48,431 nucleotides of DNA from a phage. The position numbers and the translations under genes are program-made. Below, one piece after another: positions 4,129 to 31,551 of this stretch; position 1 is the first letter of the stretch; each line of letters begins with the position of its first letter. The DNA is taken from assembly GCA_012646845.1 (NCBI GenBank), contig GCA_012646845.1_4707.1. One strand, given 5' to 3'. The notes under the pieces are model-generated. The model worked only from the letters and a program-made list of their open reading frames with translations, was not told where the DNA came from and did not search any database.

Positions 4129-4176
4129 ATCGAATTCCTTAAATTCTCTTGAGTTCAATTAATGATGAAAAGCTGT

Positions 4177-4201
4177 AAAAAAGGGTGGGGCGAACCCCAC
4201 C
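4177..4201 (-). terminator. intrinsic terminator-like hairpin GGTGGGG-CGAA-CCCCACC followed by U-run on minus strand
   Basis: perfect 7-bp stem, tetraloop, A-run 4177-4182 on plus strand. Confidence 0.6.
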
Positions 4202-4226
4202 AAAACGTCAGACACACGCAGGAAAA

Positions 4227-4649
4227 TTAATTCAGTGACGTGTACAACGCATAACGACTATAGATCTCAACCGCTGGTCCGTTATGCGTTAACAGACCAT
4301 CTCGGTTGTAGTATTGGAAAAATGAATAACGTTTGTCGAAGTGATAAACGAAAGCAATGTCTTTGTCAAGACCTGTGATGCGCGGTCTGTTTTTATCTAG
4401 CAATGCTTTGACTTTTAACAGTGTTGCCGCACGTGCTTTAACATTAGGGATTAATCCATCACAGTCGATATAAACCGTGTAACCTGTTTCAGATGTTGCG
4501 ACGGTTGTATTGCGATTGATGCGGAAGATTTTTGTTTTGTATGTATCATCTTCAAGAATTGGGTTTTGTTTTTCGTATTTTCGTTTACGCAGAAATTCTA
4601 CAACGGTAATATAGTTAGCGGTGATATGTCCGGTTATAGCTTGTAACAT
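4227..4649 (-). CDS. hypothetical protein
   Basis: ORF track; conserved leader with AAGAGGA SD immediately upstream. Confidence 0.65.
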   Translation of the reverse strand: MLQAITGHITANYITVVEFLRKRKYEKQNPILEDDTYKTKIFRINRNTTVATSETGYTVYIDCDGLIPNVKARAATLLKVKALLDKNRPRITGLDKDIAFVYHFDKRYSFFQYYNRDGLLTHNGPAVEIYSRYALYTSLN

Positions 4650-4795
4650 CTTGACATCCTCTTATATTGGATTGATTACAGTTATCTTAAATAGGCGATA
4701 AGATATCTTGCTCTTATCACCTAGGTTGCGTTTTGTTAATAACAAAACGCATCGCCTTAGTGACCTATGTCACTAAGGTAATATAGCCGTGAAAT
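4650..4795 (-). promoter_or_regulatory. conserved promoter/leader element copy A: CTATATTAC motif, two inserted hairpins, conserved 28-nt RBS leader
   Basis: 4650-4677 and 4777-4794 are identical to 32967-32994 and 33039-33056; copy A carries an extra ~51 nt (4726-4776) forming two perfect hairpins. Confidence 0.45.
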
Positions 4796-4830
4796 AGACT
4801 GCGTTAACAAGAAATAAAACAGCATAAAAC

Positions 4831-4870
4831 CTCCTCCCCCATCCTTCAAGAGGACGGTGGGAAGAGGGAG
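4831..4870 (-). terminator. pyrimidine/purine-arm hairpin downstream of gene 4876..5277
   Basis: CCTCCTCCCCC...GGTGGGAAGAGGGAG imperfect inverted repeat (pairs with G-U in minus-strand RNA). Confidence 0.35.
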
Positions 4871-4875
4871 AGAGA

Positions 4876-5277
4876 TTAAATGTCGTGGACGGCATTGCCG
4901 TTTAACCAGCAATACAGCTTAACGCGACACGGATACCGCTTCGTTGCAGCAACCATTTCACCGCGTAAACGCTGGTAGATTTCATCCTGGTGTTCACGTT
5001 CAATGGGGTAATCAGCCCAGCATTCGATCATGACGTCACCATTAGTCAGAATCGTCGTACGCATCCTGTCCTGGACTCGACGATCTTTCCCGGCATTAGG
5101 GAAATACATCCCTTCAGTACGAATAAGGTCGCCACAGGGCATGACTAACCACTCATTCGTTTTGCCGGTATTCTTATAATCCATTACAGCTTGCATTGCG
5201 GTGTCAACGCTAAAAGAAACATAATTCCAAACGGGGGTCCAACGATAGATTGCGGGTTGTTCAAGTGTTTCGTTCAT
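4876..5277 (-). CDS. hypothetical protein
   Basis: ORF track; AGGAAA SD. Confidence 0.6.
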   Translation of the reverse strand: MNETLEQPAIYRWTPVWNYVSFSVDTAMQAVMDYKNTGKTNEWLVMPCGDLIRTEGMYFPNAGKDRRVQDRMRTTILTNGDVMIECWADYPIEREHQDEIYQRLRGEMVAATKRYPCRVKLYCWLNGNAVHDI

Positions 5278-5491
5278 GAGGCGCTTTTCCTATTTTTATT
5301 TTCTGCACAGGATAAATTCAACGGCATAAAGCCCTTCCCTGCCCTTATATGGGGCGGGAAGAGTTTATGACCGCAATGAGAATCTCTCACGACAAGCTCA
5401 CGACGATTATCGCATCACCCCGCGAGTGAGGGAGATCAGGATCACCTCCTACGTCGTAACGACAGTAATCCCGTTAACGTCGCCTTAGGCA

Positions 5492-11501: not shown

Positions 11502-11517
11502 TGCAGCGGTAACATAA

Positions 11518-11549
11518 CCCTCCTCCAACCCGTAAGGGAAGGAGGAGGG
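11518..11549. terminator. hairpin CCCTCCTCC...GGAGGAGGG with nested CCC-GTAA-GGG, between convergent genes
   Basis: perfect 9-bp inverted repeat read directly. Confidence 0.5.
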
Positions 11550-11566
11550 CTTATGCTGTTATGCTA

Positions 11567-11941
11567 TTAATGTTCGTTCCAGACGGCATCTTCCGGTGGA
11601 ACAATAGGATCTTTCTTCGGCATTGACGGCACTTCATGACGATGTTTACGGAACTGTCCGTCGATAACTTCACGAAGCCGGTACGCATCAACCCACGTTG
11701 ATTTATTGAACAGCTCCAACGTCACAGTTAATCGCGTTCTTGACATTGAATAGCTTTTCTTTGCAATCAAATCGGGATAATTCAGTTGAGCGAACCATGC
11801 CCGTATTTGTGCTTCGGTAAAAGCGATGCTGTAATAACTAAGTTTACCGTCATTAAAATCGTGCGCGTGGGTGTAACGTCCAGCGTAACGCCAAACAAGA
11901 TGCACATTCAGATCTATCCATGGTGGGGTGGTATCAGCCAT
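11567..11941 (-). CDS. hypothetical protein
   Basis: ORF track; GAGGGT SD. Confidence 0.6.
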   Translation of the reverse strand: MADTTPPWIDLNVHLVWRYAGRYTHAHDFNDGKLSYYSIAFTEAQIRAWFAQLNYPDLIAKKSYSMSRTRLTVTLELFNKSTWVDAYRLREVIDGQFRKHRHEVPSMPKKDPIVPPEDAVWNEH

Positions 11942-11950
11942 GCGTTACCC

Positions 11951-12520
11951 TCAACGATTCTTCATCACTTTACCCAGGCTTTCGATATTATCCCAAAAGC
12001 GATTTTTACTTGGCGCATCGCCAACGATAACCGACATCAAATCGCGACGTTCACGACTGATGATGCCCTGCGATTTCCAGATCACCATCGTCCAGCAAGC
12101 AGCCAGAACAAACAGATGGTTAATACTCGGTTTGGTTTGTGCGATGAACGCAAGCCATGCCCAGATACCGGTGTATACTACCGTCACTAAAAAGAGAGAG
12201 ATTGTTGCAACGACAACAACGAAGTTTTGGATGGCTGGCTGATTGGCGTTATCCTGAAAAGCGGTAAGATCAGGAAGATTACCTTCAACGGAACTCGTAT
12301 CATCGATTTCCAATTCTTCGATTTCTTTTCGTATGTCGGGAGCTAATCCGGCATCATCAAGATGCTTCTTTAACCGCTGAATACTTAATCGTTGTCCGAC
12401 AGGGATATTAATGTTGTCGTAACTATTAAGCGCATCAACCAGGGAGCGTCCGTCAACGAGAACCAAGCTCGCAGTACCCATCGTCTGCGGTTTTATTTTG
12501 TAAAGGTCTTTTACTTTCAT
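11951..12520 (-). CDS. hypothetical membrane protein
   Basis: ORF track; hydrophobic segments (VVVVATISLFLVTVVYTGIWAWLAFI). Confidence 0.6.
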   Translation of the reverse strand: MKVKDLYKIKPQTMGTASLVLVDGRSLVDALNSYDNINIPVGQRLSIQRLKKHLDDAGLAPDIRKEIEELEIDDTSSVEGNLPDLTAFQDNANQPAIQNFVVVVATISLFLVTVVYTGIWAWLAFIAQTKPSINHLFVLAACWTMVIWKSQGIISRERRDLMSVIVGDAPSKNRFWDNIESLGKVMKNR

Positions 12521-12541: not shown

Positions 12542-15154
12542 TTATACGTCCGGCGTAAAATCAAAAGGAACGTCCGTACGAATGATATCATAACGTTTTC
12601 CTAAGAAATAGAACTCTTCGGGAACCAGACCGGGAACGATGCTATCGCCGATGAACTGTGGGTATGCCCAGATGTACTGAGTGAGTCCTTCGAACATATC
12701 CAGGTTATTTGCGTGGTTACCCATGATACGTTTCCAGAGTTCGCGTTTATACGGTGTTTTAACATCGAACCCATAAAGCGGTGCGAGGTCTTCACCAGGA
12801 ACAAATCCCAGGTAATAGTGGATCTGACTAACCGGGAAACCAAGCGTATCTCGCGGAATGGTGATCGCTTGCTCAGCCTTGGTGACATGCGTCTCAATAA
12901 TCCAGTCGTAGCACTCCGAATAGAACCGATCGAATTTCTCTGGATTATACCACGCTTTGGGAAGATTCAGTTTCTCCGTGAACGCGTTCGACATGATCGT
13001 CGGCAAGAACGGAAGAACGCCGGTTTTGATCTGTGTGTATTTCGATTTTACCCGATTGACTAGATTCCAGCAACTGTATCCTAATTGATCGTTGCAGAAC
13101 TCAACGTAGAGATCGTAATCCCCACCCGATAATGGATTATTAATATCGCCGATGTCTGCCGCATATTTGTTGGGGTATCGGTTATTGAAAGCCAGTTTGG
13201 TTTGGTAATCGTAAATGCACGGTTTATTGTTCTTCGTGTTAATCCACCACCAGGGTTCACCCACCTGCACACAAATGTCTTGGACATGCGGGTAGATGAT
13301 ATCAGCAAACGCGGTTAACACATCCCCTAACCACGCCATCGCGTGTTGGTTGCATGGCGACAACAACCAAGACGGCGGCGTATATCCGGTTGCTGCTATG
13401 TTTCCTTCCCAATCCTGCTGCGCCCACTCGAACGGGCATGCCGTACTCATCAATTCGTAACTTAAACTGATTGTAACAGAGAAATGGTGTTTTGCAGCGT
13501 ATGCGGCGAAAGCTTCATGCCATGCGATACAGGGTGGGTTGAGTACATCTGTGGTGTTCACCAGTAACTTACTCGCACTTGGTGTCCAGACAGTATCGTA
13601 GAAATGCGACATTCCAACATAGTGCACTAATTCATCTTGATATCCCGCATAAACCAGGTTCTCAAATACGCGTTCCGGCGTGATATTGTAATGGTCGTCA
13701 TAAGCGGTTATCGCACGAAGCTCGTGTGGTGTACATTGGTGACGATTAACCGTCATTTCCTGATACACCCCATCAATAGGAAGAATCTCGAGGGTTAAAC
13801 AGAGGTCGATCGGTGTTTCCAGGTAGGTCGTTTCTGTAGCACCTTCCTTATAATGTCGAGAACTCATGCTGAACATCAACGACGTGACCGATTCGAGTTC
13901 GATAGGTTCGTCAGCATAGAACCCCGCCATTGCGTCGTTGAAATCGATCGTTACGATTGCGCTTGTACCGTCTTCAGAGACGTCGGTGGCGTATCGGGTT
14001 AATGAGATATACTGACGGCTATCGTCTTTGTGTACGACGGTTAAAACCGGCGGGTTTTCGGTATCTGCAAAGTTCCGCTGGTCACCAGTAAACGTGATCT
14101 TGGCTTTAAAGATCAAACCGAGCAACGACGTCATGGGATCATACGCAACACAACCATGATCTAGCGTATCCGTTGTCCGCCATTCTATCCCTACCAACCC
14201 GTTAGCGGTATGGCATCGCATATACGCATTAAGTGTCATGTCTTCACTGACAACCGCGAAGTTCTCTGTAGATTGACCATTGATAATCCAATACATCGGT
14301 TGCCAGAGGTTACGCGTGCCTTTTGCGTAGCGGTAGGTTGGTGCACCTTTAGGGTTGCCGTTATTGAGATGGAATACAGCCGTACCTTGGTAATGATCGT
14401 TCGTGTTAATCGGAACACTGTACGCGTCGCCGAGGTCCGTACGTTCGACCTTCGTGACAGTTGCGTTTTCAAACAGCCCACGTAGTGTAGGAAGACCAAT
14501 GTCATCAGGCGCGTTTTCTCGGCGAATCGCGTCCGCGATGCGGTGGGCTAGGGCGGGGTAAATGGTCTCACCCTGCTGTAGGTTTGCAAGACCTACAAAG
14601 CGATCGGGGTTGATACCAGCAATCAATAACTCGACATCGCCCTTCGTTCTATCGTCATGGAGGTATTTCAGTCCAGTAAGATCAAGATGTTGAATTAACG
14701 ACAACAGATTGTACTTACGGTTTTCAACAGTCAGTGCAAGATCACCCGCCCAAACCAAACTTCCCTCATCCGCCGTTACTCTAACGGATTGGCGGCCTGT
14801 GGTGGACGTTGTTGTCGTTTTATTTAATTGTCCTTGTAGGAAGTCGGTTGCGAGGTCAAAGGCAACGCCGTAACGGTCAGCGACCGCCTGCATGATTTCA
14901 CGTAACTGGGTATCTTCTTCAATGATGATCTTGACGGGTATTCCCAAGAACGCCTTGGCGAGGTCTCGCTTAACCATCGAGACGAATACGGATTTGTAAT
15001 ATCGGCCTCCATCTTTCCCTTTAAAAAGAATGGAGGTTGTTTCGGGTGACGATAGAACACGTGCAAATACAACATCGTCGAAAGTAAGAGAAAGTCCGTT
15101 TTTCTCGTTGGTTAATCTTAGTATTTCATTTTGCGCGGTTTCATGTAACTTCAT
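12542..15154 (-). CDS. tail fibre/tailspike-like protein with shared N-terminal anchor module
   Basis: 870 aa; N-terminal ~170 aa homologous to 21881..23635, 21196..21723 and 27286..28116 (RDLAKAFLGIP; NKTTTTSTTGRQSV...LTGLKYLHDDRTKG). Confidence 0.7.
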   Translation of the reverse strand: MKLHETAQNEILRLTNEKNGLSLTFDDVVFARVLSSPETTSILFKGKDGGRYYKSVFVSMVKRDLAKAFLGIPVKIIIEEDTQLREIMQAVADRYGVAFDLATDFLQGQLNKTTTTSTTGRQSVRVTADEGSLVWAGDLALTVENRKYNLLSLIQHLDLTGLKYLHDDRTKGDVELLIAGINPDRFVGLANLQQGETIYPALAHRIADAIRRENAPDDIGLPTLRGLFENATVTKVERTDLGDAYSVPINTNDHYQGTAVFHLNNGNPKGAPTYRYAKGTRNLWQPMYWIINGQSTENFAVVSEDMTLNAYMRCHTANGLVGIEWRTTDTLDHGCVAYDPMTSLLGLIFKAKITFTGDQRNFADTENPPVLTVVHKDDSRQYISLTRYATDVSEDGTSAIVTIDFNDAMAGFYADEPIELESVTSLMFSMSSRHYKEGATETTYLETPIDLCLTLEILPIDGVYQEMTVNRHQCTPHELRAITAYDDHYNITPERVFENLVYAGYQDELVHYVGMSHFYDTVWTPSASKLLVNTTDVLNPPCIAWHEAFAAYAAKHHFSVTISLSYELMSTACPFEWAQQDWEGNIAATGYTPPSWLLSPCNQHAMAWLGDVLTAFADIIYPHVQDICVQVGEPWWWINTKNNKPCIYDYQTKLAFNNRYPNKYAADIGDINNPLSGGDYDLYVEFCNDQLGYSCWNLVNRVKSKYTQIKTGVLPFLPTIMSNAFTEKLNLPKAWYNPEKFDRFYSECYDWIIETHVTKAEQAITIPRDTLGFPVSQIHYYLGFVPGEDLAPLYGFDVKTPYKRELWKRIMGNHANNLDMFEGLTQYIWAYPQFIGDSIVPGLVPEEFYFLGKRYDIIRTDVPFDFTPDV

Positions 15155-15176
15155 TGAAAACCTCAGCCCTTTAGAA

Positions 15177-15818
15177 TTAGATGTACTGCTTACCGCCCAC
15201 GAAGGAAGTTAGCCAGTTCCCACTGACAAGCTGTGATACCCAGCCAGGCACTGCCCTGCCATTCTGGCTCATGACATTACCACACCAGCCAGGGAATCCG
15301 GGACGGATATAATAGAAAGTTAAATTGTAGAGATGGCAATTCCATACCGCAACGTTATGTTTACCAGAAACCGCTTTAAAGACAAACGCAACGGGTAAAG
15401 GCGACGATAACAATTCGGTCACAGGGACGGCCGACCAGTTCGCATTCGCATTCCATGGTTGCCAGGTATGGCTACGCGAGTCGCAAAATACGTTACCGTT
15501 GTTACCGCGCCCACCCGCATGCCACCACAGCGACGGACTCATGTTCTTAAGTGAGGTAAATTGCTGTGGTGGAATATTAGGAATAATAACAGGGTTGGTA
15601 CCTTGCCCATGTTTCTTTTCTTTTGCGTTTACATACCCACTTATCGATTCGAGGTATTTGACACCAGGATAATTGTTCTGGACTTGTGTCGCAATATCAC
15701 GGACATCAAACGTCCAGCAGATCATGGTGTTGTAGTAAGCATCGGTGTTGTCGTACCAAGCGTTACCATCTTGTAAACGTGCGCCACTATTCGGTGTTTT
15801 ATCTGTGCTTATAGCCAT
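15177..15818 (-). CDS. hypothetical protein, paralogue sharing C-terminal module with 15925..16590
   Basis: C-terminus GFPGWCGNVMSQNGRAVPGWVSQLVSGNWLTSFVGGKQY nearly identical to neighbour; ~100-bp near-identical DNA. Confidence 0.65.
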   Translation of the reverse strand: MAISTDKTPNSGARLQDGNAWYDNTDAYYNTMICWTFDVRDIATQVQNNYPGVKYLESISGYVNAKEKKHGQGTNPVIIPNIPPQQFTSLKNMSPSLWWHAGGRGNNGNVFCDSRSHTWQPWNANANWSAVPVTELLSSPLPVAFVFKAVSGKHNVAVWNCHLYNLTFYYIRPGFPGWCGNVMSQNGRAVPGWVSQLVSGNWLTSFVGGKQYI

Positions 15819-15924
15819 GTTATTGTCCTATACTACGATGATTGAGATATCGAATGTCGGACGCTTGGTGCCGTCTGGTAGTACATACAGAAACACCCAC
15901 AGATAAAACAATAACTCCCATCAA

Positions 15925-16590
15925 TTAAATTGATGTTAGATACTGCTTACCTCCGACAAACGATGTCAACCAGTTCCCACTGACAAGCTGTGATACCCAG
16001 CCAGGCACTGCCCTGCCATTCTGGCTCATCACGTTACCGGCCCATCCCGGAAAACCAGGTCGGAAAATATATACTTGAATATGTGTTAAAGCGTTATCAT
16101 TACCTCCACCAACAGCAACATTACGACGTCCGGATGATGGGAAATATTCTTTTAAGAACAGGGGATCGTTTGCCAATAAAGAAGCAGGCCAAGGATTAGC
16201 GGATGCGTCAACATCGAATTCGGTCCATCGCCATTTGCGCCCAGTATCGAACCAGGTTGACGTACCACCGCCACGCACCGCAAGATTGCGTGCGTCACGG
16301 GCACTGTATATTGATTCGATGTTGCGCCACCCACCTTTTGCGACGTTTGCCGCATAGCAAATCGCATTACCACCATTCTTCTTTTCGTAAACGGTTCGTT
16401 TGATATGAACACGGTCGATAAACGCTTCACCGTATTTGTTGACGAGTGTTTGCGCGATATCACGAAGATCGTGCATATGAAAGGCGATGTCTTCGTTGTG
16501 GAACCACGTTGTCGGGTTCCAAACGGTGCCGTTTGGTTCGGCACACATCGATCTGATGTTGTTGCGTTGATTAATCGCGATAAAGCCCAT
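15925..16590 (-). CDS. hypothetical protein, paralogue of 15177..15818
   Basis: start set to ATG 16590 (GAGGTGGACC SD), aligns with N-terminus of paralogue. Confidence 0.6.
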   Translation of the reverse strand: MGFIAINQRNNIRSMCAEPNGTVWNPTTWFHNEDIAFHMHDLRDIAQTLVNKYGEAFIDRVHIKRTVYEKKNGGNAICYAANVAKGGWRNIESIYSARDARNLAVRGGGTSTWFDTGRKWRWTEFDVDASANPWPASLLANDPLFLKEYFPSSGRRNVAVGGGNDNALTHIQVYIFRPGFPGWAGNVMSQNGRAVPGWVSQLVSGNWLTSFVGGKQYLTSI

Positions 16591-16653
16591 GGTCCACCTC
16601 GTTCCTGTTCTCGAAGGAAATTTCATACGATGACGCCATAACAGCTCCCCCAT

Positions 16654-16695
16654 CCTCCCTTCCCTTACGGGTTGGGAGGATGTAAGGGAAGGAGG
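16654..16695 (-). terminator. long hairpin CCTCCCTTCCCTTAC...GTAAGGGAAGGAGG downstream of lipoprotein gene
   Basis: ~14-bp inverted repeat read directly. Confidence 0.5.
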
Positions 16696-16705
16696 AACTA
16701 CTTAA

Positions 16706-17209
16706 TTACTCGCTGACAACCTCAACGGAATTGGGATCGGCGATCAGCGCACGGTCGGTAGAACAATTGAAGAAGACCATGCCAACACCATCGCCGTTCG
16801 AGTTCAGGGTTGAACTTACGTAAGACAATGCTGGTTTATTCATACGGTAGAAGCGTTCGTTGGTGGTGGTATTGAACCCCAGATCAACGTAGTCTTTCAC
16901 CGTGGTGTACAACTGTGTGGACTCGAAAACGGTTACCGGAGAGTCAACGGTAAACTGACTACCTTCGTCCACTACCAGAACTTTATCGTTCCAGATTTCA
17001 GTGGTTGAGAACTTCGGTTTCCAGTGTTCGAATTCCTGGGTTGCTCCCCAGCAGGAATACACAGCGAGATCGCTGTTCTTCTCAACAGGTTTTAACCCCA
17101 CCAGTTGTGTCAGACCTTTATCCAGATTCGGTAAGCCTTCCAGTGTAGCACACCCACCCAGAGAAAGTACCATCAACATACCGAGAATAATCGCGCAAAG
17201 TTTCTTCAT
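16706..17209 (-). CDS. lipoprotein (signal peptide with lipobox LGGC)
   Basis: MKKLCAIILGMLMVLSLGGCATLEG; AAGGAAA SD. Confidence 0.75.
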   Translation of the reverse strand: MKKLCAIILGMLMVLSLGGCATLEGLPNLDKGLTQLVGLKPVEKNSDLAVYSCWGATQEFEHWKPKFSTTEIWNDKVLVVDEGSQFTVDSPVTVFESTQLYTTVKDYVDLGFNTTTNERFYRMNKPALSYVSSTLNSNGDGVGMVFFNCSTDRALIADPNSVEVVSE

Positions 17210-17253
17210 CGTCGGATTTCCTTATGTGTTAACGGAAGTGATTTCCATAGTAA

Positions 17254-17670
17254 TTACACAGTTTTAGGAAATTCCGGCCAATCGATATTTGGCGCGGCGT
17301 CGGTATCGATAGCCGTCACCTCGTCAATGTAATCCAAAACAGCATTAAGTTGGGCTGTTTCTTCCGGAGTCAGTTTTCGCCCGGCCCGTAATTTTAACTG
17401 AATAAGATCAATGGAAGCCAGCGCAGAGTCAATCAGAGATTTTTTCATCTGTTCTGCCTCGGCGACGAGATCTTCGTGTTGCCGCTCGGGTTCCGGAGGT
17501 GCGGTAAACTCACCATTTGAGTATAACCAACCTATTCCGGGCGACACAGCTCCCGTATCGCTAATGCCGACCAACTGTTGATTGTCAGATACATTGAGTT
17601 CTGCTTCGCCATCGTAAACGATCGTGTTTACTACCACCCCATTTTCAATAACAGCGTATGATGTACTCAT
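17254..17670 (-). CDS. tfa: tail fibre assembly chaperone (lambda Tfa-like)
   Basis: C-terminus AEAEQMKKSL...LDYIDEVTAIDTDAAPNIDWPEFP matches lambda Tfa C-terminal domain; ATG overlaps fibre stop (TAATG). Confidence 0.8.
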   Translation of the reverse strand: MSTSYAVIENGVVVNTIVYDGEAELNVSDNQQLVGISDTGAVSPGIGWLYSNGEFTAPPEPERQHEDLVAEAEQMKKSLIDSALASIDLIQLKLRAGRKLTPEETAQLNAVLDYIDEVTAIDTDAAPNIDWPEFPKTV

Positions 17671-20600
17671 TACATAAACTCCTCGATGATGCAAATCCCG
17701 TCAGCGCCACGCCCACCACGCATAACGGTTCCAGTGTAACCGTTATCGTAAGCGCCGCCACCGCCCGAACCTCGTGCGAGGCCGTTTGACCCGCCACCAA
17801 CAGCTGCGCGACCACCGCCACCCCAATATGACGCACCCCCACCACCACATACAGGAAATGCGCCAGCTTGACCGTCATCACCATCACCACCTGAAATGCG
17901 TATATCCCCGGTACTAGGTGTACCACCACCCCCACCACCAGTGTTTGTGACGGTTGTTTTTCCTGCGCCTTGCCCACCGGGAGCAGTTAGTAGGGATGCA
18001 AATTTACTATCCCCGCCCCTGTTTCCAATTGTTGCCCCGGAACCACCAGTGCCACCAGAACCAATTACGACAGAATAACTAGTAGCTGTTACCGCTATAA
18101 CCGAAATTACTGTTCCACCGGCCCCACCGCCAGCACCAAAAAACGTTTCGCTGTTGGAAAAAGCCTGGCAACCACCGCCGCCGCCTCCACCACCGGTTAA
18201 TATTACTCTAATCCGTTTTGTTCCTTGTGTTGGGGTGTACGTCCCTGACGATGTGAAAACACGCGTATTCAGTAAACGTCCGACATATCCGCTAGAATCG
18301 GCTAAACCAAGATCTTTAGCTGCTAACGTTATATTAGCTGTACCGTCAAACGGTTTACCGTTAATCGTGCGCGCGGTCTGCAACTTCGTGGCCGTTGCTG
18401 CGTTTCCTGACGTATTCTGGTTTCCCGCGGCGTTAACACCTGGTAGATTGATGTTCGCACTACCGTCGAAAGATACCCCACCAATGGTGCGGGCTGTTTT
18501 CAGTTTTGTCGCCGTGGCAGCATTACCGGTTGTGTCTTGGTTACCGGTGGTGTTTACCCCAGGCAGGTTGATATTGGCTGTTCCGTTAAATGAAACACCG
18601 CCAATCGTCCTTGCTGTTTGCAGCCTCGTTGCGGTTGCTGCGTTCCCCGTGGTGTTTTGGTTACCCGTTGCATTCACGCCCGGGATACTATCCTTAGATG
18701 TGTAGATCTGTGCCCATTCCGACCAGTTAGAATCGGCTGCATCACGACGTGAACGTAAATAAGCCGGAGCGTGTGTGCCCGAGGTACCTGACCAACCAAT
18801 GAGGATTTCACCTTCACCGGCCGATGAAGCACCTTTGAGGTGAATAACGTTACCATAGGCGGTTGGGTAGCCGTTACTGTACGCTTCATACATCTGGATA
18901 CCGGTATTACTACCTTGGGTCGCATTAGCTAACGCGGTAACACGACCTTTGGAGGCGAGAGCGGTAATACTGAAGCTAATGTCCTTAGTACCGTCAAAGG
19001 CGACCCCATTAATCTTCCGTGCTGTTTGGAGTTTCGTGGCAGTAGCCGCGTTACCAGAGGTACTCTGATTACCTGCTTTGTTCACGCCAGGCAAATCAAT
19101 GTTGGCTGTTCCATCAAAGGACACACCCCCTATGGTTCTCGCTGTCTGGAGTTTTGTTGCTGAGCCAGCGTTTCCGGAAGTACTTTGATTACCTGCCGCG
19201 TTGACGCCCGGTAGGTTAATGCTAGCAGAACCATCAAAAGAAACTCCACCTATCGTGATCGGTGTTTTCAATTTCGTGGCTGTCGCAGCGTTACCGGTTG
19301 TATTTTGATTGCCTGTCGCATTAACGCCCGGTAATGCAATATCCGCTGTTCCGTCAAAGGCAACGCCGCCGATTTTACGGGCGGTTTGTAGCTTGGTTGC
19401 ACTAGCAGCGTTACCACTGGTATTCTGGGTGCCAGCTTTGTTAACACCCGGGAGATCGATGTTAGCAGAACCATCGAAGCTGACGCCACCTATCGTTCTT
19501 GCAGTAGCGAGTTTAGCTGCTGTGGCTGCATTGTTACCCACTTTCAGCCAATCATCCCATGGACCATCCTGGCCGTTCCACGATGCCGTTAAACTACGTA
19601 CGTAAATATTGCCAGTACGTACAGTGTAACGTTGCGTTCCACCGAATTGTCCAGCAGGGAGCACTTCAAGGTAACCTGCGGCATTTGCTTCAGGGAAATT
19701 GTGGGCGACGTCCGCATTCGTCGTTATTGGTTTAGACCAAATACCCACAGACGCTTCAACCGGACCGTAAGTATTCAGATTTGCGTCGGTGGGGAGCTGT
19801 CCTCGAAAACGTTGGAATTGTGTCGCCGATAACCCCAACGTTGTTTGCATGCTTTCAATGCTGGATTGCTGAAGTAACGTCCGTGCTGTCGACGTAATCA
19901 CGGTAAGCGCAACTTTATTAACACCGGTGAAATACGGGAGTTTGTCTGCTGATGTCGCTAAACCTGAAAAGGCGGTCAGTAATGCGTTAAGGGGCTGCTT
20001 CCCAGCTAACGCATTTGTTACCGTCGTTGCGAAATTAGGATCGCTTCCTATAGCTCGAGCCAGCTTATTAAGCGTATTTAGCGTCGCTGGTGACGAGTCG
20101 ATCAGCGCCGTGATCGCACGCATCACAAATTCCGTGTTGGCTATCTGTCGACTGCTATTGTTAACTGCTGCGGTGGGCGCTGCTGGCGTACCAGTGAATA
20201 CAGGGCTATTAAGATCCGCCTTGAGGGCGATGAGACGTTTAAGCGCTTCAACATCAACTTTCAGGTTTTCCCATCCGATGAGAGAACCACCACTGCTGGC
20301 ATGGTAACGGTTGTACCAGAAGTCACCGTTAACGCCTAAAAAGAATATTCCCTTCTCTTCGTTTTGTGGACCGGAACTATTTCGTGACGAGCTGATGTAA
20401 TTGATTTCAATAAGACCAGTAAACGTCACTCCTGGGATTATTTTGTTGTCTCCAGCTGACTGTGATACTTGGTAAATCCCCGGGGTTGCGGCTTTAACCC
20501 ATGTTAAGAATTCTGTTACTCCAGCGGTACCGCTAAAATTCTTAACGTCGGTAAGTATCGCCCCATAACCGAACATACCGGGTAGAGCCACTCGTCCGCT

Positions 20601-21188
20601 GGTACGGTCACGAATATCTGTCGCAACAACAGGCAATTGTTTACGAACGGCATTAACCGCTTTAGGCGTGGCCGATTTTGTCTCGTCATCGCTATCGGTT
20701 TCATTACTTAGAATAGTTAAACCGCGTGTAGCAGTAGTTGCATCAGGAAGAAATGCGTTATCCAACACCTTAAGCTGTATTGCACTCGTATTACTAACAA
20801 CGACATGCACCTGACAGTTAAGAACGCTGGTTGCGCCTTCGGCAGGCGTAGGCTTATATCTTTCTGGTGCACTGCAGACGGCAATCAGAACACCTTTATC
20901 GTCGTACAGACCGATCTCACGTACCCAGAACCCACCTTGACCAGCAGGAATAATACCCTCAACGACAATCCTGGTTGTACTATCGCCATCCGCATGGATA
21001 TTAGAAACTTCCCCACGATAAACTTCGTGAACAAGTGCTGTTTGGCTGGCGGTCGGGGTTGGTGTCGAGCCGTTACCATCACCAACGGCAAAGTGTGTGA
21101 TTTTTAGTTTCTCACCGTCGGGAAGTAACGCAGCGGTGATACGTTCTGCTCCTTTATCGGTAACTACCGTTTTATATGCTGTACTCAT
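17670..21188 (-). CDS. long tail fibre protein: P2 gpH-like N-terminus, two blocks of ~38-aa fibre repeats, Gly-rich C-terminal tip
   Basis: N-term MSTAYKTVVTDKGAERITAA...HFAVGDGNG; repeats GNAATATKLxTARTIGGVSFDGxANIxLPGVN; C-terminal poly-Gly motifs; start set to ATG 21188. Confidence 0.85.
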   Translation of the reverse strand: MSTAYKTVVTDKGAERITAALLPDGEKLKITHFAVGDGNGSTPTPTASQTALVHEVYRGEVSNIHADGDSTTRIVVEGIIPAGQGGFWVREIGLYDDKGVLIAVCSAPERYKPTPAEGATSVLNCQVHVVVSNTSAIQLKVLDNAFLPDATTATRGLTILSNETDSDDETKSATPKAVNAVRKQLPVVATDIRDRTSGRVALPGMFGYGAILTDVKNFSGTAGVTEFLTWVKAATPGIYQVSQSAGDNKIIPGVTFTGLIEINYISSSRNSSGPQNEEKGIFFLGVNGDFWYNRYHASSGGSLIGWENLKVDVEALKRLIALKADLNSPVFTGTPAAPTAAVNNSSRQIANTEFVMRAITALIDSSPATLNTLNKLARAIGSDPNFATTVTNALAGKQPLNALLTAFSGLATSADKLPYFTGVNKVALTVITSTARTLLQQSSIESMQTTLGLSATQFQRFRGQLPTDANLNTYGPVEASVGIWSKPITTNADVAHNFPEANAAGYLEVLPAGQFGGTQRYTVRTGNIYVRSLTASWNGQDGPWDDWLKVGNNAATAAKLATARTIGGVSFDGSANIDLPGVNKAGTQNTSGNAASATKLQTARKIGGVAFDGTADIALPGVNATGNQNTTGNAATATKLKTPITIGGVSFDGSASINLPGVNAAGNQSTSGNAGSATKLQTARTIGGVSFDGTANIDLPGVNKAGNQSTSGNAATATKLQTARKINGVAFDGTKDISFSITALASKGRVTALANATQGSNTGIQMYEAYSNGYPTAYGNVIHLKGASSAGEGEILIGWSGTSGTHAPAYLRSRRDAADSNWSEWAQIYTSKDSIPGVNATGNQNTTGNAATATRLQTARTIGGVSFNGTANINLPGVNTTGNQDTTGNAATATKLKTARTIGGVSFDGSANINLPGVNAAGNQNTSGNAATATKLQTARTINGKPFDGTANITLAAKDLGLADSSGYVGRLLNTRVFTSSGTYTPTQGTKRIRVILTGGGGGGGGCQAFSNSETFFGAGGGAGGTVISVIAVTATSYSVVIGSGGTGGSGATIGNRGGDSKFASLLTAPGGQGAGKTTVTNTGGGGGGTPSTGDIRISGGDGDDGQAGAFPVCGGGGASYWGGGGRAAVGGGSNGLARGSGGGGAYDNGYTGTVMRGGRGADGICIIEEFM
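18290..18700 (-). repeat. coding tandem repeats (~114 bp) within tail fibre gene, block 2
   Basis: imperfect direct repeats visible in DNA and protein. Confidence 0.6.
18950..19520 (-). repeat. coding tandem repeats (~114 bp) within tail fibre gene, block 1
   Basis: imperfect direct repeats visible in DNA and protein. Confidence 0.6.
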
Positions 21189-21195
21189 GGTGTTT

Positions 21196-21723
21196 TTATC
21201 CTGGATAAATAGTGATGATATCACCAATGACCGTTGTGGCACCGGCGTAAAGATGAGCCGGAGATACATCGTGTTGGTTTGTCACGGTAAGATCTAATCG
21301 ACCACGCCAAACCATGGAGGTATTCGCGATGGGGATAGAAATCTTTTTGGATATATCGTCACGAAAATCAATAACAGTGGCAAGGGTAACTGCATCAAAG
21401 TCAACGTCGGGATCAAAGACGAACCCGTATTGATCTGAAATCGCCCGAATAATCGCGTGTATAGTTGTTGTCTTAACAGACTCTAAAACGATTTTTATTG
21501 GTATTCCTAGAAATGCCTTCGCAATATCGCGTCGAGCGTAAACGATAAAACTTTCACCGTTCCACCTTGTTCCTTCATTTGCTGTGACGATCACTTTTGC
21601 CCTGTTAGCACCAGAACTTCCATCCAAGACTAATGTAAGATCGGAGCTGTTGAATACGCTACTGTTACGTCTGTTTATCAACGACGTCAGTTCGTCTTTC
21701 CATGGCGGGTAAAGTGAACACAT
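21196..21723 (-). CDS. short protein consisting of the shared fibre N-terminal module
   Basis: YARRDIAKAFLGIPIKIV; start set to ATG 21723 (GGAGGAGGG SD). Confidence 0.65.
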   Translation of the reverse strand: MCSLYPPWKDELTSLINRRNSSVFNSSDLTLVLDGSSGANRAKVIVTANEGTRWNGESFIVYARRDIAKAFLGIPIKIVLESVKTTTIHAIIRAISDQYGFVFDPDVDFDAVTLATVIDFRDDISKKISIPIANTSMVWRGRLDLTVTNQHDVSPAHLYAGATTVIGDIITIYPG

Positions 21724-21836
21724 ATGTGCACCCTCCTCCAACATAACCAGATTAATTATAAATTTCTTAAACGTGGAACACGATTCGAGATAAACGTAAA
21801 CGGTCTTAACGACCGCATAAAATTCCGCGCATATTA

Positions 21837-21880: not shown

Positions 21881-23635
21881 TTATGCTGCTACATATCCAG
21901 GCCAACGTTCTCTTGGCCAGTTTGTTGCGCCCTGTCCAACGTTGTCCTTACCAGAAGTTACGTTACTCACATCCCATCCACTCAGATCCTGATTGAACGC
22001 GGTGTTTTCGCGCATCATGAGATCGATCTTACGTAGCGAACGGGTATTCCAGCCGGAAATGTCTTGGTTGAATGCCGTATTGTAGGCAAACATGTTAGAC
22101 ACGCTTTGTAATTTTGAGGTGTTCCAACCACTGATGTCGCTATTGAACGACATACTTGAGAACATGCTGCTCGCATCAACAAGACTGTCAGTTTTCCAAT
22201 TAACCAGTTTATCACCATCAAGTGCATCGCTGCTGCTGAACATAAAACTCATGTCGTTAACTTTGGACACATCCCATTTATCCAACCCGTTACCCACGAA
22301 CGCAGGACAGGACGAGAACATATAACTCATATTAGTAACCCGACTCACATTCCATTTACTGAAGTCGAGGTTAAGTTTCTGACACCCTAAGAAGGTTTTA
22401 CACATGTTGGTGATACGACTAACATCCCACTCTTGGATGTTGGGGTCGTTAAGCGTCGTTAAATAGTTGAACAATGTCGCTAACGACGTCCATTTCTCTG
22501 GAATCCGGTTTGGTACCGTACGAAGCGATGCGAGGTTGTTGGTTGACGGAGAGCAGAACATACCGTTATCCCAATTTACGATCTCCGTAATTTTGGACCC
22601 TTTGATCGTCTGAGTGACGTTACCATCTTTCACCATACCTGTAGCGACGATGGTATATTCACCAGTGTCCGCATAATCGTGGGTGTAGGAGTTGTTGCTT
22701 GAGGTCTCCGTTACTTTATTCCCATCACCCCAATCGATATTGACCTTATCCCATCCACCTAGGTAGAACTGTACTTTGCCTCCGGTGGCTTTTAGGATAT
22801 ATTTACCCCCATTGTCGGTATAATAACAGACAACCATTGAACCGTACAGATTACCTATCTGCCAATCATCCTTTTGCGATATTGCGATTTGCGCCGCACC
22901 ACGCTGTACGAAGAGTACCGTACGATTCTCGGCAGTCTGTAATGTGGTTATTGCCTGAGCTTTATCGTCCTCGCTAATTTCACCAGATCCCACCAAAGCG
23001 CTTAACATCCTTTCGAAGTATTCGATCGGTAACTCAGCTCCAACAGACTTATCAACAGACTGTACAGCAAGATCGCCCAATGCTGCAGTGGTAGCCAACG
23101 CCAATGAACCCTTGGTCATATCTGTTTCTTGGATGTAATGCAGTCCCGTAAGCTGGTACGCTTGAATAATAGTAATCAGGTTCAGCGTATCGTTAACGAC
23201 CTGTACCTGTAAATGCCCGGACCATACATAGCTGCTTTCAGCAATCGGTAGCTCGACCGATTGAATACCTGATGTTTCAAAGGTGATCTTCTTATTAAGA
23301 TCGGTTTCCAGGAAATCAACCGCGAGGTCGAAATTCATGCCGTACTTTTCAGCGATGGAATCTACGATATTCTTGAAAGCAACATCTGTGCTTACGATAA
23401 AACGTAACGGAATTCCCGTAAACGCTTTAGCGATGTCTCGACGAACATACGTAAGCGATTGTTCGAAGAAATAGGGACTGTTATCTCCAGGCTTGATGGT
23501 TACCTGACACGCTTCAGGATATTCAGCTGGGATGAACGATTCGAATTTAACGTCGGATTCCTTCAACGAAAGCTTGTTATTCCGGTTCACTAACGCCAGA
23601 AGATCGGCTTTCCATCCGGGGTAAACTGTAGACAT
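21881..23635 (-). CDS. tailspike/fibre-like protein: shared N-terminal module plus C-terminal DUF285-type repeats
   Basis: N-term YVRRDIAKAFTGIP; C-terminal repeats WDVSRITNMCKTF / WNVSRVTNMSYMFSSC / WDVSKVNDMSFMFSSS / WNTSKLQSVSNMFAYNTAFNQDISGWNT. Confidence 0.7.
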   Translation of the reverse strand: MSTVYPGWKADLLALVNRNNKLSLKESDVKFESFIPAEYPEACQVTIKPGDNSPYFFEQSLTYVRRDIAKAFTGIPLRFIVSTDVAFKNIVDSIAEKYGMNFDLAVDFLETDLNKKITFETSGIQSVELPIAESSYVWSGHLQVQVVNDTLNLITIIQAYQLTGLHYIQETDMTKGSLALATTAALGDLAVQSVDKSVGAELPIEYFERMLSALVGSGEISEDDKAQAITTLQTAENRTVLFVQRGAAQIAISQKDDWQIGNLYGSMVVCYYTDNGGKYILKATGGKVQFYLGGWDKVNIDWGDGNKVTETSSNNSYTHDYADTGEYTIVATGMVKDGNVTQTIKGSKITEIVNWDNGMFCSPSTNNLASLRTVPNRIPEKWTSLATLFNYLTTLNDPNIQEWDVSRITNMCKTFLGCQKLNLDFSKWNVSRVTNMSYMFSSCPAFVGNGLDKWDVSKVNDMSFMFSSSDALDGDKLVNWKTDSLVDASSMFSSMSFNSDISGWNTSKLQSVSNMFAYNTAFNQDISGWNTRSLRKIDLMMRENTAFNQDLSGWDVSNVTSGKDNVGQGATNWPRERWPGYVAA

Positions 23636-23652
23636 AAGCACTCCAAAGTTCA

Positions 23653-23669
23653 TGGGGCGGTAACCGCCC
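23653..23669 (-). other. short perfect hairpin GGGGCGG-TAA-CCGCCCC between large structural gene and downstream fibre gene
   Basis: read directly; lies just upstream of the start region of gene 21881..23635. Confidence 0.4.
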
Positions 23670-28250: not shown

Positions 28251-28829
28251 TTAGTAAGGAATCAGATCGTTAAGCTTTTCTTCTTCAATGACAAAGAAGT
28301 TGTTCTGGTCGTCTAAATCTGTTAACAGGACTTGTCCGACAGTAAAGCACGTGCCACCCTTCTTAGGCATCCATACCGGCTCATTCGTTACCTTATCGGG
28401 ATACCATTTGAAACGATTGGTATCTAAGAAGAACGCTGCTTTGTTCACTTTATCCGTTGATCGGTAACTTACTAACGCTGGCCACTCAATCCAGGTATTT
28501 GTGCATGGCACATGTAAAGGATACCATGCGCGCCAGCGTTTGCCCGGCTTGTTAGGATCAACCCAATACTCGGCAGTCAATACAGCATCTTTATAATGTT
28601 TCTGTATTAACATTTCGAGCACAAGCTCATTGCCTTTTGATGAATCTAAAGTCACTTCAGCCATATAAAGAGATTTAGGTAATCCAGACTGTTTTGTGGG
28701 CAGCGTTACGACACCGGTAACCAACGGTCTGCTCGGCTTACGCTTCTGTTCTTTCCGATGTGTGTAAAGAAATAGCCCGATAGCTGCGGCAACAAGTATA
28801 ATAAACAACACTACCTTAATCCAATTCAT
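28251..28829 (-). CDS. membrane-anchored hypothetical protein
   Basis: N-terminal TM helix MNWIKVVLFIILVAAAIGLFLY; ATGA overlap with upstream gene. Confidence 0.6.
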   Translation of the reverse strand: MNWIKVVLFIILVAAAIGLFLYTHRKEQKRKPSRPLVTGVVTLPTKQSGLPKSLYMAEVTLDSSKGNELVLEMLIQKHYKDAVLTAEYWVDPNKPGKRWRAWYPLHVPCTNTWIEWPALVSYRSTDKVNKAAFFLDTNRFKWYPDKVTNEPVWMPKKGGTCFTVGQVLLTDLDDQNNFFVIEEEKLNDLIPY

Positions 28830-29575
28830 TCGTCAATATCTCCTTCTACAAACAGAGTCAATTTGATTTCAGGGTCATAGAACATAGTAATCACACCATC
28901 TTGCTCTACTGAACGTTGCGCTGTCCATATTAACTGTTCATCCCGAATATCAAATTTATGCCGTTCGTCACTCACCACAGCTTCCGCATCAACGTAATGG
29001 TAAACATCACCGAGGGGATTCTCAATCCAGCCGCGTACCATCAAACGTTCTTTTTGTTTACGTGTAAAGAAGCGATAAGGATCTTCGCACGTGCGCCATA
29101 CATCCCCGTTCCCGCTGACCAGCTCATCATAAACTTTAGAGAGTTCGTCAGGTACCGGAATCAAAATGTTATCTTGATAGTTCGACCAGAAACGACGTAC
29201 ATCTTGGATCAACTCATCGTCCTGCAGTTTAATTACCGCGTCATTATAATCGATTTTAACAGTATCGATATCAAGGCGGGTAAACGGAAGAGCGTCTAGG
29301 TTTGCCACACTGACTTCAATCCGATCGTGATGCACATAAACCCACCCGTCAAACCAGCGGTACCCATCAGCTTGATATAACGTTGTGTGATATCTGACGA
29401 CGTTGATGTCTTCGAACGATTCCAATAAAGCTTTAGCTGCTAAAAGCGGTGAAAAGTTCTTTGATTGTCCTGGTTTACGTATCTCTTCTTTGATGAACAA
29501 TTTACCAAGCAGTGGGTGTTCGATAACAAAACCACAGGAAAGCATGATGCTTCCTTGATAGCGGGGTTCTTGCAT
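28826..29575 (-). CDS. hypothetical protein
   Basis: ORF track; GAGGAA SD. Confidence 0.6.
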   Translation of the reverse strand: MQEPRYQGSIMLSCGFVIEHPLLGKLFIKEEIRKPGQSKNFSPLLAAKALLESFEDINVVRYHTTLYQADGYRWFDGWVYVHHDRIEVSVANLDALPFTRLDIDTVKIDYNDAVIKLQDDELIQDVRRFWSNYQDNILIPVPDELSKVYDELVSGNGDVWRTCEDPYRFFTRKQKERLMVRGWIENPLGDVYHYVDAEAVVSDERHKFDIRDEQLIWTAQRSVEQDGVITMFYDPEIKLTLFVEGDIDE

Positions 29576-29751
29576 TTTCTATTCCTCAAACAAAAAGATT
29601 GTCTTTTACGCGACATGATTACAAGTACACAGGTTACTGAATTTCTGTAAAAGTTAATTTTCGTAAACTAAAAGAAAATGTATCCGTGTTTCCTGGTTCT
29701 TCCCCTCCACAGCCTCAGGAAGAGAAGAACCGTTTGCTAAGTTGTTATGTA

Positions 29752-30000
29752 TTAAAATGCGTTGATTGGACTGTTCAACGCTTTATCACGGATTTGAATC
29801 GCCGCCAGCATTGCTTTCTGGTACGAATCGTAAGCATCAACAGAAACAGTCGTATCAACCAATTCCTTTAATACTGATTCAGCCGCTTTTACGCGGACGC
29901 GGAACTTGGTGATTGCGTTATCTTTGTTGCGATAAACCGTGATATGGTGCAGCGGTTGAACTTTGGTTTTAACGGATTTAGTTGCTTTGATCGTTTTCAT
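29752..30000 (-). CDS. small basic hypothetical protein
   Basis: ORF track; AAGGAAA SD. Confidence 0.5.
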   Translation of the reverse strand: MKTIKATKSVKTKVQPLHHITVYRNKDNAITKFRVRVKAAESVLKELVDTTVSVDAYDSYQKAMLAAIQIRDKALNSPINAF

Positions 30001-30054
30001 GGTGATTTCCTTCTTTATTAGGATGATTACATTTAGTCAGTTTGACAGCATAAA

Positions 30055-30079
30055 CCCTTCCCGCTTTATGCAGGAAGGG
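30055..30079 (-). terminator. hairpin CCCTTCC...GGAAGGG downstream of hydrolase gene
   Basis: inverted repeat read directly. Confidence 0.4.
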
Positions 30080-30093
30080 CATACGGATTTGTT

Positions 30094-30591: not shown

Positions 30592-30845
30592 CTTAATTAA
30601 CCTCACGATAAGGTGCTGTCCACTGGCGTCTTGATAACGCAACCCGTCTATCGGGTTGTTCTATTCAGCGGGCAGCAGGTTAGCGTCAGATGTTTGCCCG
30701 ACATCCACGACAGAAATAAACGGTACTGAAAATACGGTCTCCTCTGGTTTGGCAATAAACATAACGTTGGATAACAGAACCCATTTCCCGCATCCAACGC
30801 GGTAAAGGCGTACATCGTTTGAATTCATATAGTTTCTCAAAGATG

Positions 30846-31148: not shown

Positions 31149-31174
31149 AACAGTCGCTCTCGTTTCAGGGGGAG

Positions 31175-31378: not shown

Positions 31379-31551
31379 AAACTTCTCCTTACTTTCTCTG
31401 ATAAAGCGACGATTCTAATTTTAGAAACATCCCTAATGCGAATGCGAGTAATGACGCACGTACCCACATACCTCCTTGAAAACTGTTGTACAACATAAAG
31501 ACCAGAGCGATGCCGCCCATATGCAGGCGGCACTTATCGAACAGTGTTGGT

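Follow-up and report, generated by a model that had tools for sequence, protein, structure and literature searches.

A lipoprotein family of enterobacterial jumbo phages and its possible role in exclusion or progeny protection

We analyzed a gene at positions 16706..17209 (minus strand) of a phage DNA of 48,431 nucleotides (contig GCA_012646845.1_4707.1 of GenBank assembly GCA_012646845.1), which we will refer to as the window. The open reading frame (ORF) runs from an ATG start codon to a TAA stop codon and encodes 167 amino acids. Its sequence strongly supports a lipoprotein precursor that is predicted to be acylated and to be cleaved by signal peptidase II. We are confident that the product is exported, is not part of the virion, and is directed to the outer membrane. 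As judged from sequence comparisons, it belongs to a real and constrained family of exported proteins that is under purifying selection; the family is small and is confined to enterobacterial jumbo phages of the nucleus-forming type. As for its function, our best guess, which is tentative and rests on analogy, is exclusion or progeny protection.

Positions 15000-18000 of the window are 90% identical at the nucleotide level to Escherichia phage vB_EcoM_Goslar, and the full window is collinear with 80-130 kb of Goslar. Goslar is a nucleus-forming jumbo phage (PMC13282480), and by its sequence the window is from a Goslar-like nucleus-forming jumbo phage as well. The lipoprotein gene is the orthologue of Goslar_00088 (95% amino acid identity), which is annotated as "hypothetical protein."

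Signal peptide, protein family and predicted structure

In the N-terminus of the protein, MKKLCAIILGMLMVLSLGG|C, a positively charged n-region and a hydrophobic h-region precede the lipobox, L17-G18-G19-C20 (positions 17150-17161, minus strand). As a lipobox we counted a match to [LVI][ASTVIG][GAS]C that lies in roughly the first 35 residues, together with a charged n-region and a hydrophobic h-region. The sequence MKK-LCAIILGMLMVLS-LGG-C20 has all of these features of a lipoprotein signal for Lgt and LspA. The signal peptide would comprise amino acids 1-19 (17153..17209, minus strand), and residues 2-17 form a helix in the AlphaFold2 (AF2) model. The residue after the acylated cysteine (position +2) is alanine, which agrees with the Lol rule for sorting to the outer membrane (no aspartate at +2). 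A permissive six-frame scan of the 48-kb window and of the complete 237-kb genome of Goslar for lipoboxes gave no second credible candidate, so the lipobox in 16706..17209 is not a chance match. The scan of Goslar also showed a short out-of-frame lipobox ORF of 39 amino acids within Goslar_00152.

To describe the family, we used both sequence and profile searches. Pfam had no match for the protein. In PHROGs, residues 3-152 matched phrog_9559 ("unknown function"; E = 3.7e-21), and the searches of Pfam, NCBIfam, PADLOC, and PDB sequences gave nothing beyond this. The family is thus already catalogued, without a function, as phrog_9559 and as "Lipoprotein" in UniProt (by automatic annotation). 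Using tblastn, we found the family in 55 phage records, every one of them an enterobacterial jumbo phage. The carriers are Goslar, the SPN3US group (from Salmonella, E. coli, and Proteus), and the Erwinia phage genera Erskinevirus, Wellingtonvirus, and Machinavirus. Outside of Goslar, the identity in these tblastn hits is about 30%. A word-indexed profile search of 5.8 billion clusters gave 36 proteins, of which the named ones were all from jumbo phages and most came from contigs with lengths of roughly 225-250 kb. When we searched 1.84 billion representative proteins exhaustively with HMMER, only 17 matched at E <= 0.001. One GenBank homologue, from pEa_SNUABM_43, is labelled DUF2846; we rejected this assignment, as 0/32 family members match DUF2846 even at E up to 10.

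In an alignment of 32 members, the invariant residues are the cysteine of the lipobox (32/32), C53, C149, and a handful of glycine, proline, arginine, and tyrosine residues. The lipoboxes are LAGC, LSGC, LGGC, LTGC, or LASC. By a regular-expression tally, the +2 residue is alanine in 24 of the 32 members and otherwise V, K, S, T, Q, or M; it is never aspartate. Besides the lipobox cysteine, every member has exactly two cysteines, and the proline content is 4-9%. The ratio of nonsynonymous to synonymous substitution rates (dN/dS) is 0.10 in the comparison to Goslar and 0.08 in the comparison to a more distant relative. An earlier note on this DNA had recognized the signal peptide and lipobox, and the N-terminus, the invariant cysteine, and the dN/dS of about 0.1 bear this out.

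In the AF2 model, the signal helix is followed by a disordered tether and then by a confident beta-barrel. The flexible tether extends from amino acid 21 to about 40 (17090..17149, minus strand); the predicted local distance difference test (pLDDT) is below 50 at residues 19-36, and this region is variable and bears an indel in the family alignment. The barrel domain (amino acids ~41-155; 16745..17089, minus strand) has about 115 residues in 8-9 strands and sits on the tether of about 20 residues. The conserved Cys53 (17051-17053) is on the first strand of the barrel and the conserved Cys149 (16763-16765) is on the last strand. This placement suggests an intramolecular bond, and in the model a Cys53-Cys149 disulfide is probable. 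The mature protein would have ~148 amino acids, a mass of about 16 kDa, and 4.1% proline. Its only hydrophobic segment is at residues 1-26, and the C-terminus reads ...ALIADPNSVEVVSE. A Foldseek search of the PDB found nothing significant for the barrel.

The homologue in phage SPN3US is gp159. The virion proteome of SPN3US, with 86 proteins, includes gp155, gp157, and gp160, as well as a trace of gp158 in a mutant (PMC5694885). The supplementary tables of this proteome have no row for gp159 (PMC5694885). SPN3US is the only relative that is covered by virion proteomics. The earlier note had named presence in the virion as one of the findings that would count against its proposal, and in SPN3US the homologue is absent from the virion. 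This also bears on the idea that the protein belongs to the virion or acts in its assembly, and that its hydrophobic N-terminus does not function in export. Virion genes do flank the lipoprotein gene in all lineages. Nevertheless, given the absence of gp159 from the proteome, the invariance of the lipobox and of two additional cysteines (a pair that fits an oxidizing compartment), and the predicted signal helix followed by a disordered tether, we consider a virion component to be very improbable.

Transcription signals and gene neighborhood

The lipoprotein gene appears to be a separately bounded transcription unit and is probably expressed late, by analogy with phiKZ. Upstream of the gene, at 17246..17249 (minus strand), there is a TATG motif that is conserved in Goslar and is a candidate late promoter or start site for the non-virion RNA polymerase. 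In phiKZ, this polymerase recognizes late promoters by TATG and starts at the G (PMC12809450). In both the window and Goslar, TACTATGG lies about 40 nt before the ATG of the lipoprotein gene and 5 nt past the stop codon of the gene for the tail-fibre assembly protein (Tfa). TATGAC is found upstream of the ATG in 8/8 SPN3US-like loci from GenBank, at -42 to -64 (0.027 expected per region), and it is at a similar position in 11/11 SPN3US-like loci from IMG/VR. We also scanned for sigma-70 promoters and intrinsic terminators and found nothing above background near the gene. A potential leader hairpin after the TATG of the window is not significant (z = -0.3).

Downstream, a GC-rich hairpin without a U-tract (16642..16700, minus strand) starts 5 nt past the stop codon. 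Its folding energy is -33.5 kcal/mol (z = -3.1), or -37.7 kcal/mol (z = -3.45) if the flanks are included. Another TATG lies directly past the hairpin (16637..16640, minus strand) and is a candidate restart promoter for the downstream gene. Every homologue that we examined has a strong 3' hairpin, and hairpins of differing sequence are at the same place in Goslar, SPN3US, Kwan, and the relatives L013 and L014, with z from -3.6 to -4.4. In SPN3US-like phages the hairpin is followed by a T-run, as in a canonical terminator, while in Goslar-like phages there is no T-run and TTATG follows directly.

This combination of hairpin and TATG recurs across the window. We counted 5 matches to CCTCC..GGAGG..TATG where 0.03 were expected, and 4 to CTTCCC..GGGAAG..TATG where 0 were expected. 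A stricter scan for a hairpin followed by TTATG found 4 copies in the window, with 0.43 expected, and 32 copies in Goslar. Copies of hairpin+(T)TATG are at 11513-11555, 2023-2064, 5325-5369, 1507-1547, 36911-36934, 30055-30079, and 16637-16700. The element is GC-rich and intergenic, with a polypyrimidine and a polypurine arm and only a few bases between hairpin and (T)TATG, and is strongly enriched over shuffled sequences; some copies lie between convergent genes and are bidirectional. By analogy with phiKZ, it is probably a module that combines a terminator with a late promoter. The earlier note had credited the lipoprotein gene with its own strong hairpin. The hairpin is real, but it lacks a U-tract, and it is not peculiar to this gene because it is one copy of a recurrent element.

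Around the lipoprotein gene, the neighbors vary across relatives. In the window, the genes before it encode a 590-amino-acid protein with DUF7941 and DUF285, a 182-amino-acid DUF7941 protein (21196-21744), and a gpS-like tail fibre with its Tfa (Caudo_TAP). The genes after it encode proteins of 221 and 213 amino acids, an 870-amino-acid TIM-barrel protein, a protein with two transmembrane segments, and a protein of 124 amino acids. Goslar and the relative L022 have the same arrangement without the 590-amino-acid gene and without the 221-amino-acid gene. In the metagenomic relative L014, whose lipoprotein is 84% identical, the gene is preceded by a fibre with an unrelated C-terminus and a DUF4376 chaperone and is followed by a paralogue of the 221-amino-acid type (94% identity). 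The lipoproteins of L023 and L013 are each 48% identical. In L023, the gene lies between genes for a 604-amino-acid DUF7941 protein and a 572-amino-acid protein with DUF7941 and DUF285; in L013, it lies between genes for a 1375-amino-acid protein and a two-transmembrane protein. Neither L013 nor L023 has a gpS-type fibre or Tfa beside the lipoprotein gene. We surveyed two more loci by BLAST only. In L025 (IMGVR_UViG_3300045988_173921, ~3871-5400), a 182-amino-acid DUF7941 gene is followed by Tfa and the lipoprotein, and no ORF matches the gpS-like fibre. In L026, we found neither a Caudo_TAP ORF nor a DUF4376 chaperone ORF between the fibre and the lipoprotein. Within Goslar-like genomes, the lipoprotein gene is thus a fixed landmark in an array of fibre and DUF7941 genes. 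It keeps its place while its neighbors change, so it does not track the adjacent fibre.

In the 22 SPN3US-like loci, the lipoprotein gene is monocistronic and is always divergent from 1-3 gp160-like DUF7941 genes. None of these loci has a Tfa or fibre next to the lipoprotein gene. All 22 have a GH108/PG_binding_3 endolysin and a DUF1353 gene within ~2 kb, despite rearrangements of blocks of genes, and where the neighbors were translated there is a small transmembrane protein beside the endolysin. In Goslar, 80 kb separate the lipoprotein gene from the GH108 endolysin. At 17405-17699 of the Goslar genome (MK327938; locus L016), there is a gap of 296 nt without an annotated gene, between Goslar_00023, which is small and looks DUF7941-like, and the endolysin Goslar_00024. 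The gap holds a TATG and a hairpin, and it corresponds to the position of the lipoprotein gene in SPN3US-like genomes. It may mark a relocation of the lipoprotein gene in the Goslar lineage.

The only neighbor that is shared across the entire family is the DUF7941 family of virion proteins. In SPN3US, gp160 (DUF7941) is an abundant virion protein that was assigned to the head, at over 300 copies. This raises the question of whether the large DUF7941-headed proteins of the "tail-fibre locus" are appendages of the tail or of the head. The 590-amino-acid gene of the window (21881-23653) has an N-terminal DUF7941 domain, a weak match to PKD, and DUF285 repeats; it is an insertion relative to Goslar, and L014 and L023 carry homologues of it in differing places. 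We take this as an indication that DUF7941-headed modules are shuffled as cassettes, possibly with a role in host recognition.

The immediate neighbors in the window are all on the minus strand. The tail-fibre assembly protein (17254..17670) matches PF02413 (Caudo_TAP) with E = 2.8e-20, and its orthologue in Goslar, Goslar_00089, has 138 amino acids. Its start is probably M9 (17670), which gives the same length as in Goslar, and the ORF listed by the program, up to 17694, is overextended. The gpS-like fibre (17670..21188) has the Pfam domains Phage_tail_fib, Phage_fiber_2, and Gly_rich_2. Its start is probably M28 (21188), where Phage_tail_fib begins; this gives ~1172 amino acids, as in the L022 orthologue, and the listed ORF (17670-21269) is too long.

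Downstream of the lipoprotein gene, the first of two paralogues (15925..16590) has 221 amino acids from M22 and is 94% identical to the L014 gene that starts with MGFIAINQ. The listed 242-amino-acid ORF is overextended by 21 codons and starts inside the hairpin; the true start is almost certainly M22, with its ATG at 16590, as in the gene call of the relative. Goslar lacks this paralogue: positions 15870-16587 are an insertion in the window, and the region just before the start matches a non-coding spacer in Goslar. The second paralogue (15177..15818) has 213 amino acids and corresponds to Goslar_00087. The two paralogues are 39% identical overall and nearly identical in the C-terminal ~45 amino acids, and neither has a Pfam or PHROG family. 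The domain of the second is also found at the C-terminus of proteins from structural gene clusters of Serratia phage PCH45 and Salmonella phage SPLA10. The earlier note placed the lipoprotein gene between the fibre chaperone and adhesin-like paralogues. The position is right, with a Caudo_TAP gene on one side and two paralogues on the other, while "adhesin-like" stays conjectural because the paralogues lack a Pfam or PHROG family.

Candidate functions

Our tentative best guess is that the lipoprotein acts in exclusion or progeny protection. The lipoprotein would be anchored in the outer membrane and face the periplasm, as a tethered barrel that is probably stapled by a disulfide. Late in infection, it would bind an outer-membrane component from the periplasmic side. 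Infected cells, and the debris left after lysis, would then be poor targets for adsorption or entry by the same phage and related phages. The target would be a component that is conserved across Escherichia, Salmonella, and Erwinia, rather than the receptor of the adjacent fibre. Llp and Rtp45 are disulfide-constrained exclusion lipoproteins that target receptors from the periplasmic side and shield progeny from debris as well. They are a precedent for exclusion: lipoproteins of this kind, encoded by lytic phages, that need no partner gene to act on the outer membrane.

Several observations weigh against this proposal. None of Pfam, PHROGs, NCBIfam, and PADLOC links the lipoprotein by homology to Llp, Cor, or Rtp45; the only match is to phrog_9559. 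At ~148 amino acids, the mature lipoprotein is 2-3 times the size of Llp (61 amino acids) or Rtp45 (~6 kDa). Exclusion proteins are described as being made early, but the promoter motif here is a late-type one. The lipoprotein stays 84% identical in L014 despite the swap of both the fibre tip and the chaperone (DUF4376 instead of Caudo_TAP), and its conservation extends over phages whose hosts belong to different genera. Also, fibres of the gpS/Tfa class often bind lipopolysaccharide, which a periplasmic lipoprotein could not mask. Finally, the proximity of the SPN3US-like genes to an endolysin (within ~2 kb) points towards the cell wall or lysis.

The earlier note had a narrower version of exclusion in mind: an Llp- or Cor-type blocker of the receptor for the adjacent gpS-like fibre or for the paralogues. 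In Goslar-like phages the gene is indeed placed like cor, just after the fibre and its chaperone, which resembles the arrangement in lambdoid and T1-like phages. The homologue is not in the virion of SPN3US, and the 221-amino-acid paralogue accompanies the lipoprotein in L014 at 94% identity. But the fibre swap in L014, the lack of such a fibre in L013 and L023, and the apparent lack of a fibre ORF in L025, which keeps Tfa and the lipoprotein, all argue against a link to the fibre's receptor, as does the conservation of the family in 22 SPN3US-like loci without an adjacent Tfa or fibre. As for the paralogues, Goslar does not have the 221-amino-acid one. We give this version little credence.

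The main rival to exclusion is that the lipoprotein is a lysis-stage envelope factor, which would carry out the last step of lysis (disruption of the outer membrane, or disruption linked to peptidoglycan) or set its timing, by a non-canonical mechanism. We consider this to be unlikely. The 237-kb genome of Goslar has no other lipobox gene, so it has no canonical o-spanin or u-spanin. The late-type promoter motif would fit a lysis gene, and so would the proximity of an endolysin in all 22 SPN3US-like loci, along with a small transmembrane protein wherever the neighbors were translated. In L013, the gene directly after the lipoprotein encodes a protein with two transmembrane segments, a short loop, and a tail that is rich in lysine and arginine, which we read as holin-like.

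On the other hand, no lineage has an adjoining gene that resembles an i-spanin (an N-terminal transmembrane segment and a periplasmic coiled coil). With its large folded barrel and 4% proline, the mature domain differs from o-spanins of the lambda Rz1 type, which are short and rich in proline. The two cysteines on the first and last strands of the barrel suggest an intramolecular bond. The lipoprotein is not a u-spanin, because it lacks a C-terminal transmembrane segment. In Goslar, the GH108 endolysin is far away, and many jumbo phages without the lipoprotein have a member of the two-transmembrane family.

We considered two candidates for an i-spanin or partner protein and rejected both. The first is the two-transmembrane protein of the window (11951..12520, minus strand; 189 amino acids), which is 42% identical to the one in L013. 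It adjoins the lipoprotein in L013 only, and the family is found in jumbo phages without the lipoprotein. This protein has a soluble N-terminal part of ~95 amino acids, two transmembrane segments, and a C-terminal tail rich in lysine and arginine, a layout that we also take to be holin-like. Together with the 124-amino-acid protein (11567-11941), it ends the operon in the window, and in L013 the pair lies directly after the lipoprotein. The family is also found in PCH45, PhiEaH1, Moabite-like phages, and Klebsiella jumbo phages of about 300 kb, often beside thymidylate kinase. The second candidate is the only type-II membrane protein nearby (28251..28829; 192 amino acids). It is specific to Goslar, is 11 kb away, and does not resemble a coiled coil.

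The 192-amino-acid protein (28251-28829) is part of a cluster of predicted exported proteins. The cluster also includes a Hydrolase_2 (SleB-type) cell-wall hydrolase (30094-30642) with an N-terminal signal or signal-anchor-release-like sequence (from M18), and two small proteins (31780-32130 and 32169-32591) with cleavable signal peptides that end in ..SAQA|G and ..AQAQA|N. Goslar-like phages may have their real lysis region in this cluster (28251-32591).

Another rival is that the lipoprotein is tethered to the outer membrane as an inhibitor or regulator of a muralytic enzyme, as with MliC/PliC or Spackle of T4. It would bind, in the periplasm, either the tail lysozyme of a superinfecting phage or the phage's own endolysin. 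This would explain the conservation across hosts without reference to receptors. The linkage to an endolysin in SPN3US-like phages fits with this idea. In BFVD, there is a weak match to an LprI-like lysozyme-inhibitor protein of phage RB49 (E = 1.8e-3). The protein also resembles MliC in being a lipoprotein, in having Y-x-C on its first strand, and in having a cysteine near the C-terminal strand. But Foldseek against the PDB found nothing significant, and 0/32 family members match PF09864 (MliC) even at E up to 10. Using hhalign and a profile built from E. coli MliC (24 sequences, of low diversity), the probability was 39.6%, and only the signal peptide up to Y-x-C aligned; the S-A-S-G-A-R-Y motif was unmatched. 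After this follow-up, with no significant match, we rejected homology to MliC/PliC. What favors an inhibitor is a generic resemblance of the predicted fold, and we consider an inhibitor to be quite unlikely.

A broader version joins these two rivals: the sole lipoprotein of jumbo phages without spanins would be a new kind of periplasmic effector instead of a receptor mask. It could be a lysis factor for the outer-membrane step that works without an i-spanin, or a lipid-anchored, Spackle-like inhibitor of a muralytic enzyme. The Spackle-like option would explain why the lipoprotein is conserved in phages of three host genera (Escherichia, Salmonella, and Erwinia), and also the linkage to the endolysin block in SPN3US-like phages. 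We would put either form of such an effector on the unlikely side.

These questions matter because the lipoprotein seems to be the most direct handle on how these phages act at the outer membrane of the host: it is the only predicted lipoprotein of Goslar, its conservation extends to SPN3US and the Erwinia phages, and the SPN3US virion does not contain it. We searched the literature on SPN3US gp159, on lipoproteins of jumbo phages, and on spanins of SPN3US, and found no functional data. Nor did we come across a publication of an exclusion factor, or of a lysis step at the outer membrane, in nucleus-forming jumbo phages, and a 2026 review of jumbo phages (PMC13282480) does not mention lipoproteins, superinfection exclusion, spanins, or holins. 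If the lipoprotein acts in exclusion, then it would represent a structurally new class of exclusion lipoprotein, and this would be relevant to the design of cocktails with jumbo phages. A role in lysis, in turn, would close a known gap, as there is no recognizable spanin. The gene is small, is apparently transcribed separately, and is easy to express, so the question can be tested directly.

Comparison with known systems

By sequence and by predicted fold, the lipoprotein appears to be unrelated to Llp, Cor, Rtp45, spanins, or MliC. Still, it has much in common with Llp, which blocks FhuA during T5 infection, and with Rtp45, which blocks LptDE. All three are encoded by phages, have a lipobox, and are predicted to reside in the inner leaflet of the outer membrane. 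They also share a disulfide constraint (which is predicted in our case), they are not virion proteins, and they are encoded in or next to genes for host recognition. But the lipoprotein has no sequence similarity or detectable fold similarity to Llp or Rtp45, it is well above their size of ~6-7 kDa, and it has a long tether and a barrel of 8-9 strands. As we read the Llp and Rtp45 systems, an exclusion lipoprotein is encoded next to the gene that binds the receptor it blocks and tracks that gene in relatives; the lipoprotein family does not co-vary with a neighboring receptor-binding gene, and it has a late-type motif instead of early expression. Also, Llp and Rtp45 are from siphophages, while the lipoprotein is from nucleus-forming jumbo myophages.

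Cor (from phi80, T1, N15, and HK022) is also encoded by a lipoprotein gene. The cor gene lies just downstream of the genes for the tail fibre and for fibre assembly. In the family we describe, a position next to the fibre is found only in some Goslar-like genomes. The lipoprotein is much larger than Cor and has no match to its family in Pfam, PHROGs, or NCBIfam.

Like the o-spanins (lambda Rz1, T7 gp18.7, and T4 PseT.2), the protein would be an outer-membrane lipoprotein of a lytic phage, it probably has a late promoter, and it is the only lipoprotein of its genome. Unlike for the o-spanins, there is no adjacent or embedded i-spanin gene: the neighbors are Tfa and a soluble paralogue, or DUF7941 and structural genes in other lineages. 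The large folded barrel, the low proline content, and the apparently intramolecular cysteine pair also differ from o-spanins, and the C-terminal transmembrane segment of u-spanins (T1 gp11 type) is missing. The barrel is larger than that of MliC/PliC (about 115 amino acids instead of about 85).

The closest comparisons are to SPN3US gp159, Kwan gp173, and Asesino gp174, which UniProt describes as "Lipoprotein." These are true homologues, with ~30% identity and the same signal peptide, cysteine pattern, and predicted barrel. The Goslar lineage has an insertion of 7 amino acids in the tether relative to the SPN3US and Erwinia homologues. The genes for these homologues are monocistronic, divergent from gp160-like DUF7941 genes, and next to the endolysin block, while in the Goslar lineage the gene is co-directional with its neighbors inside the fibre array.

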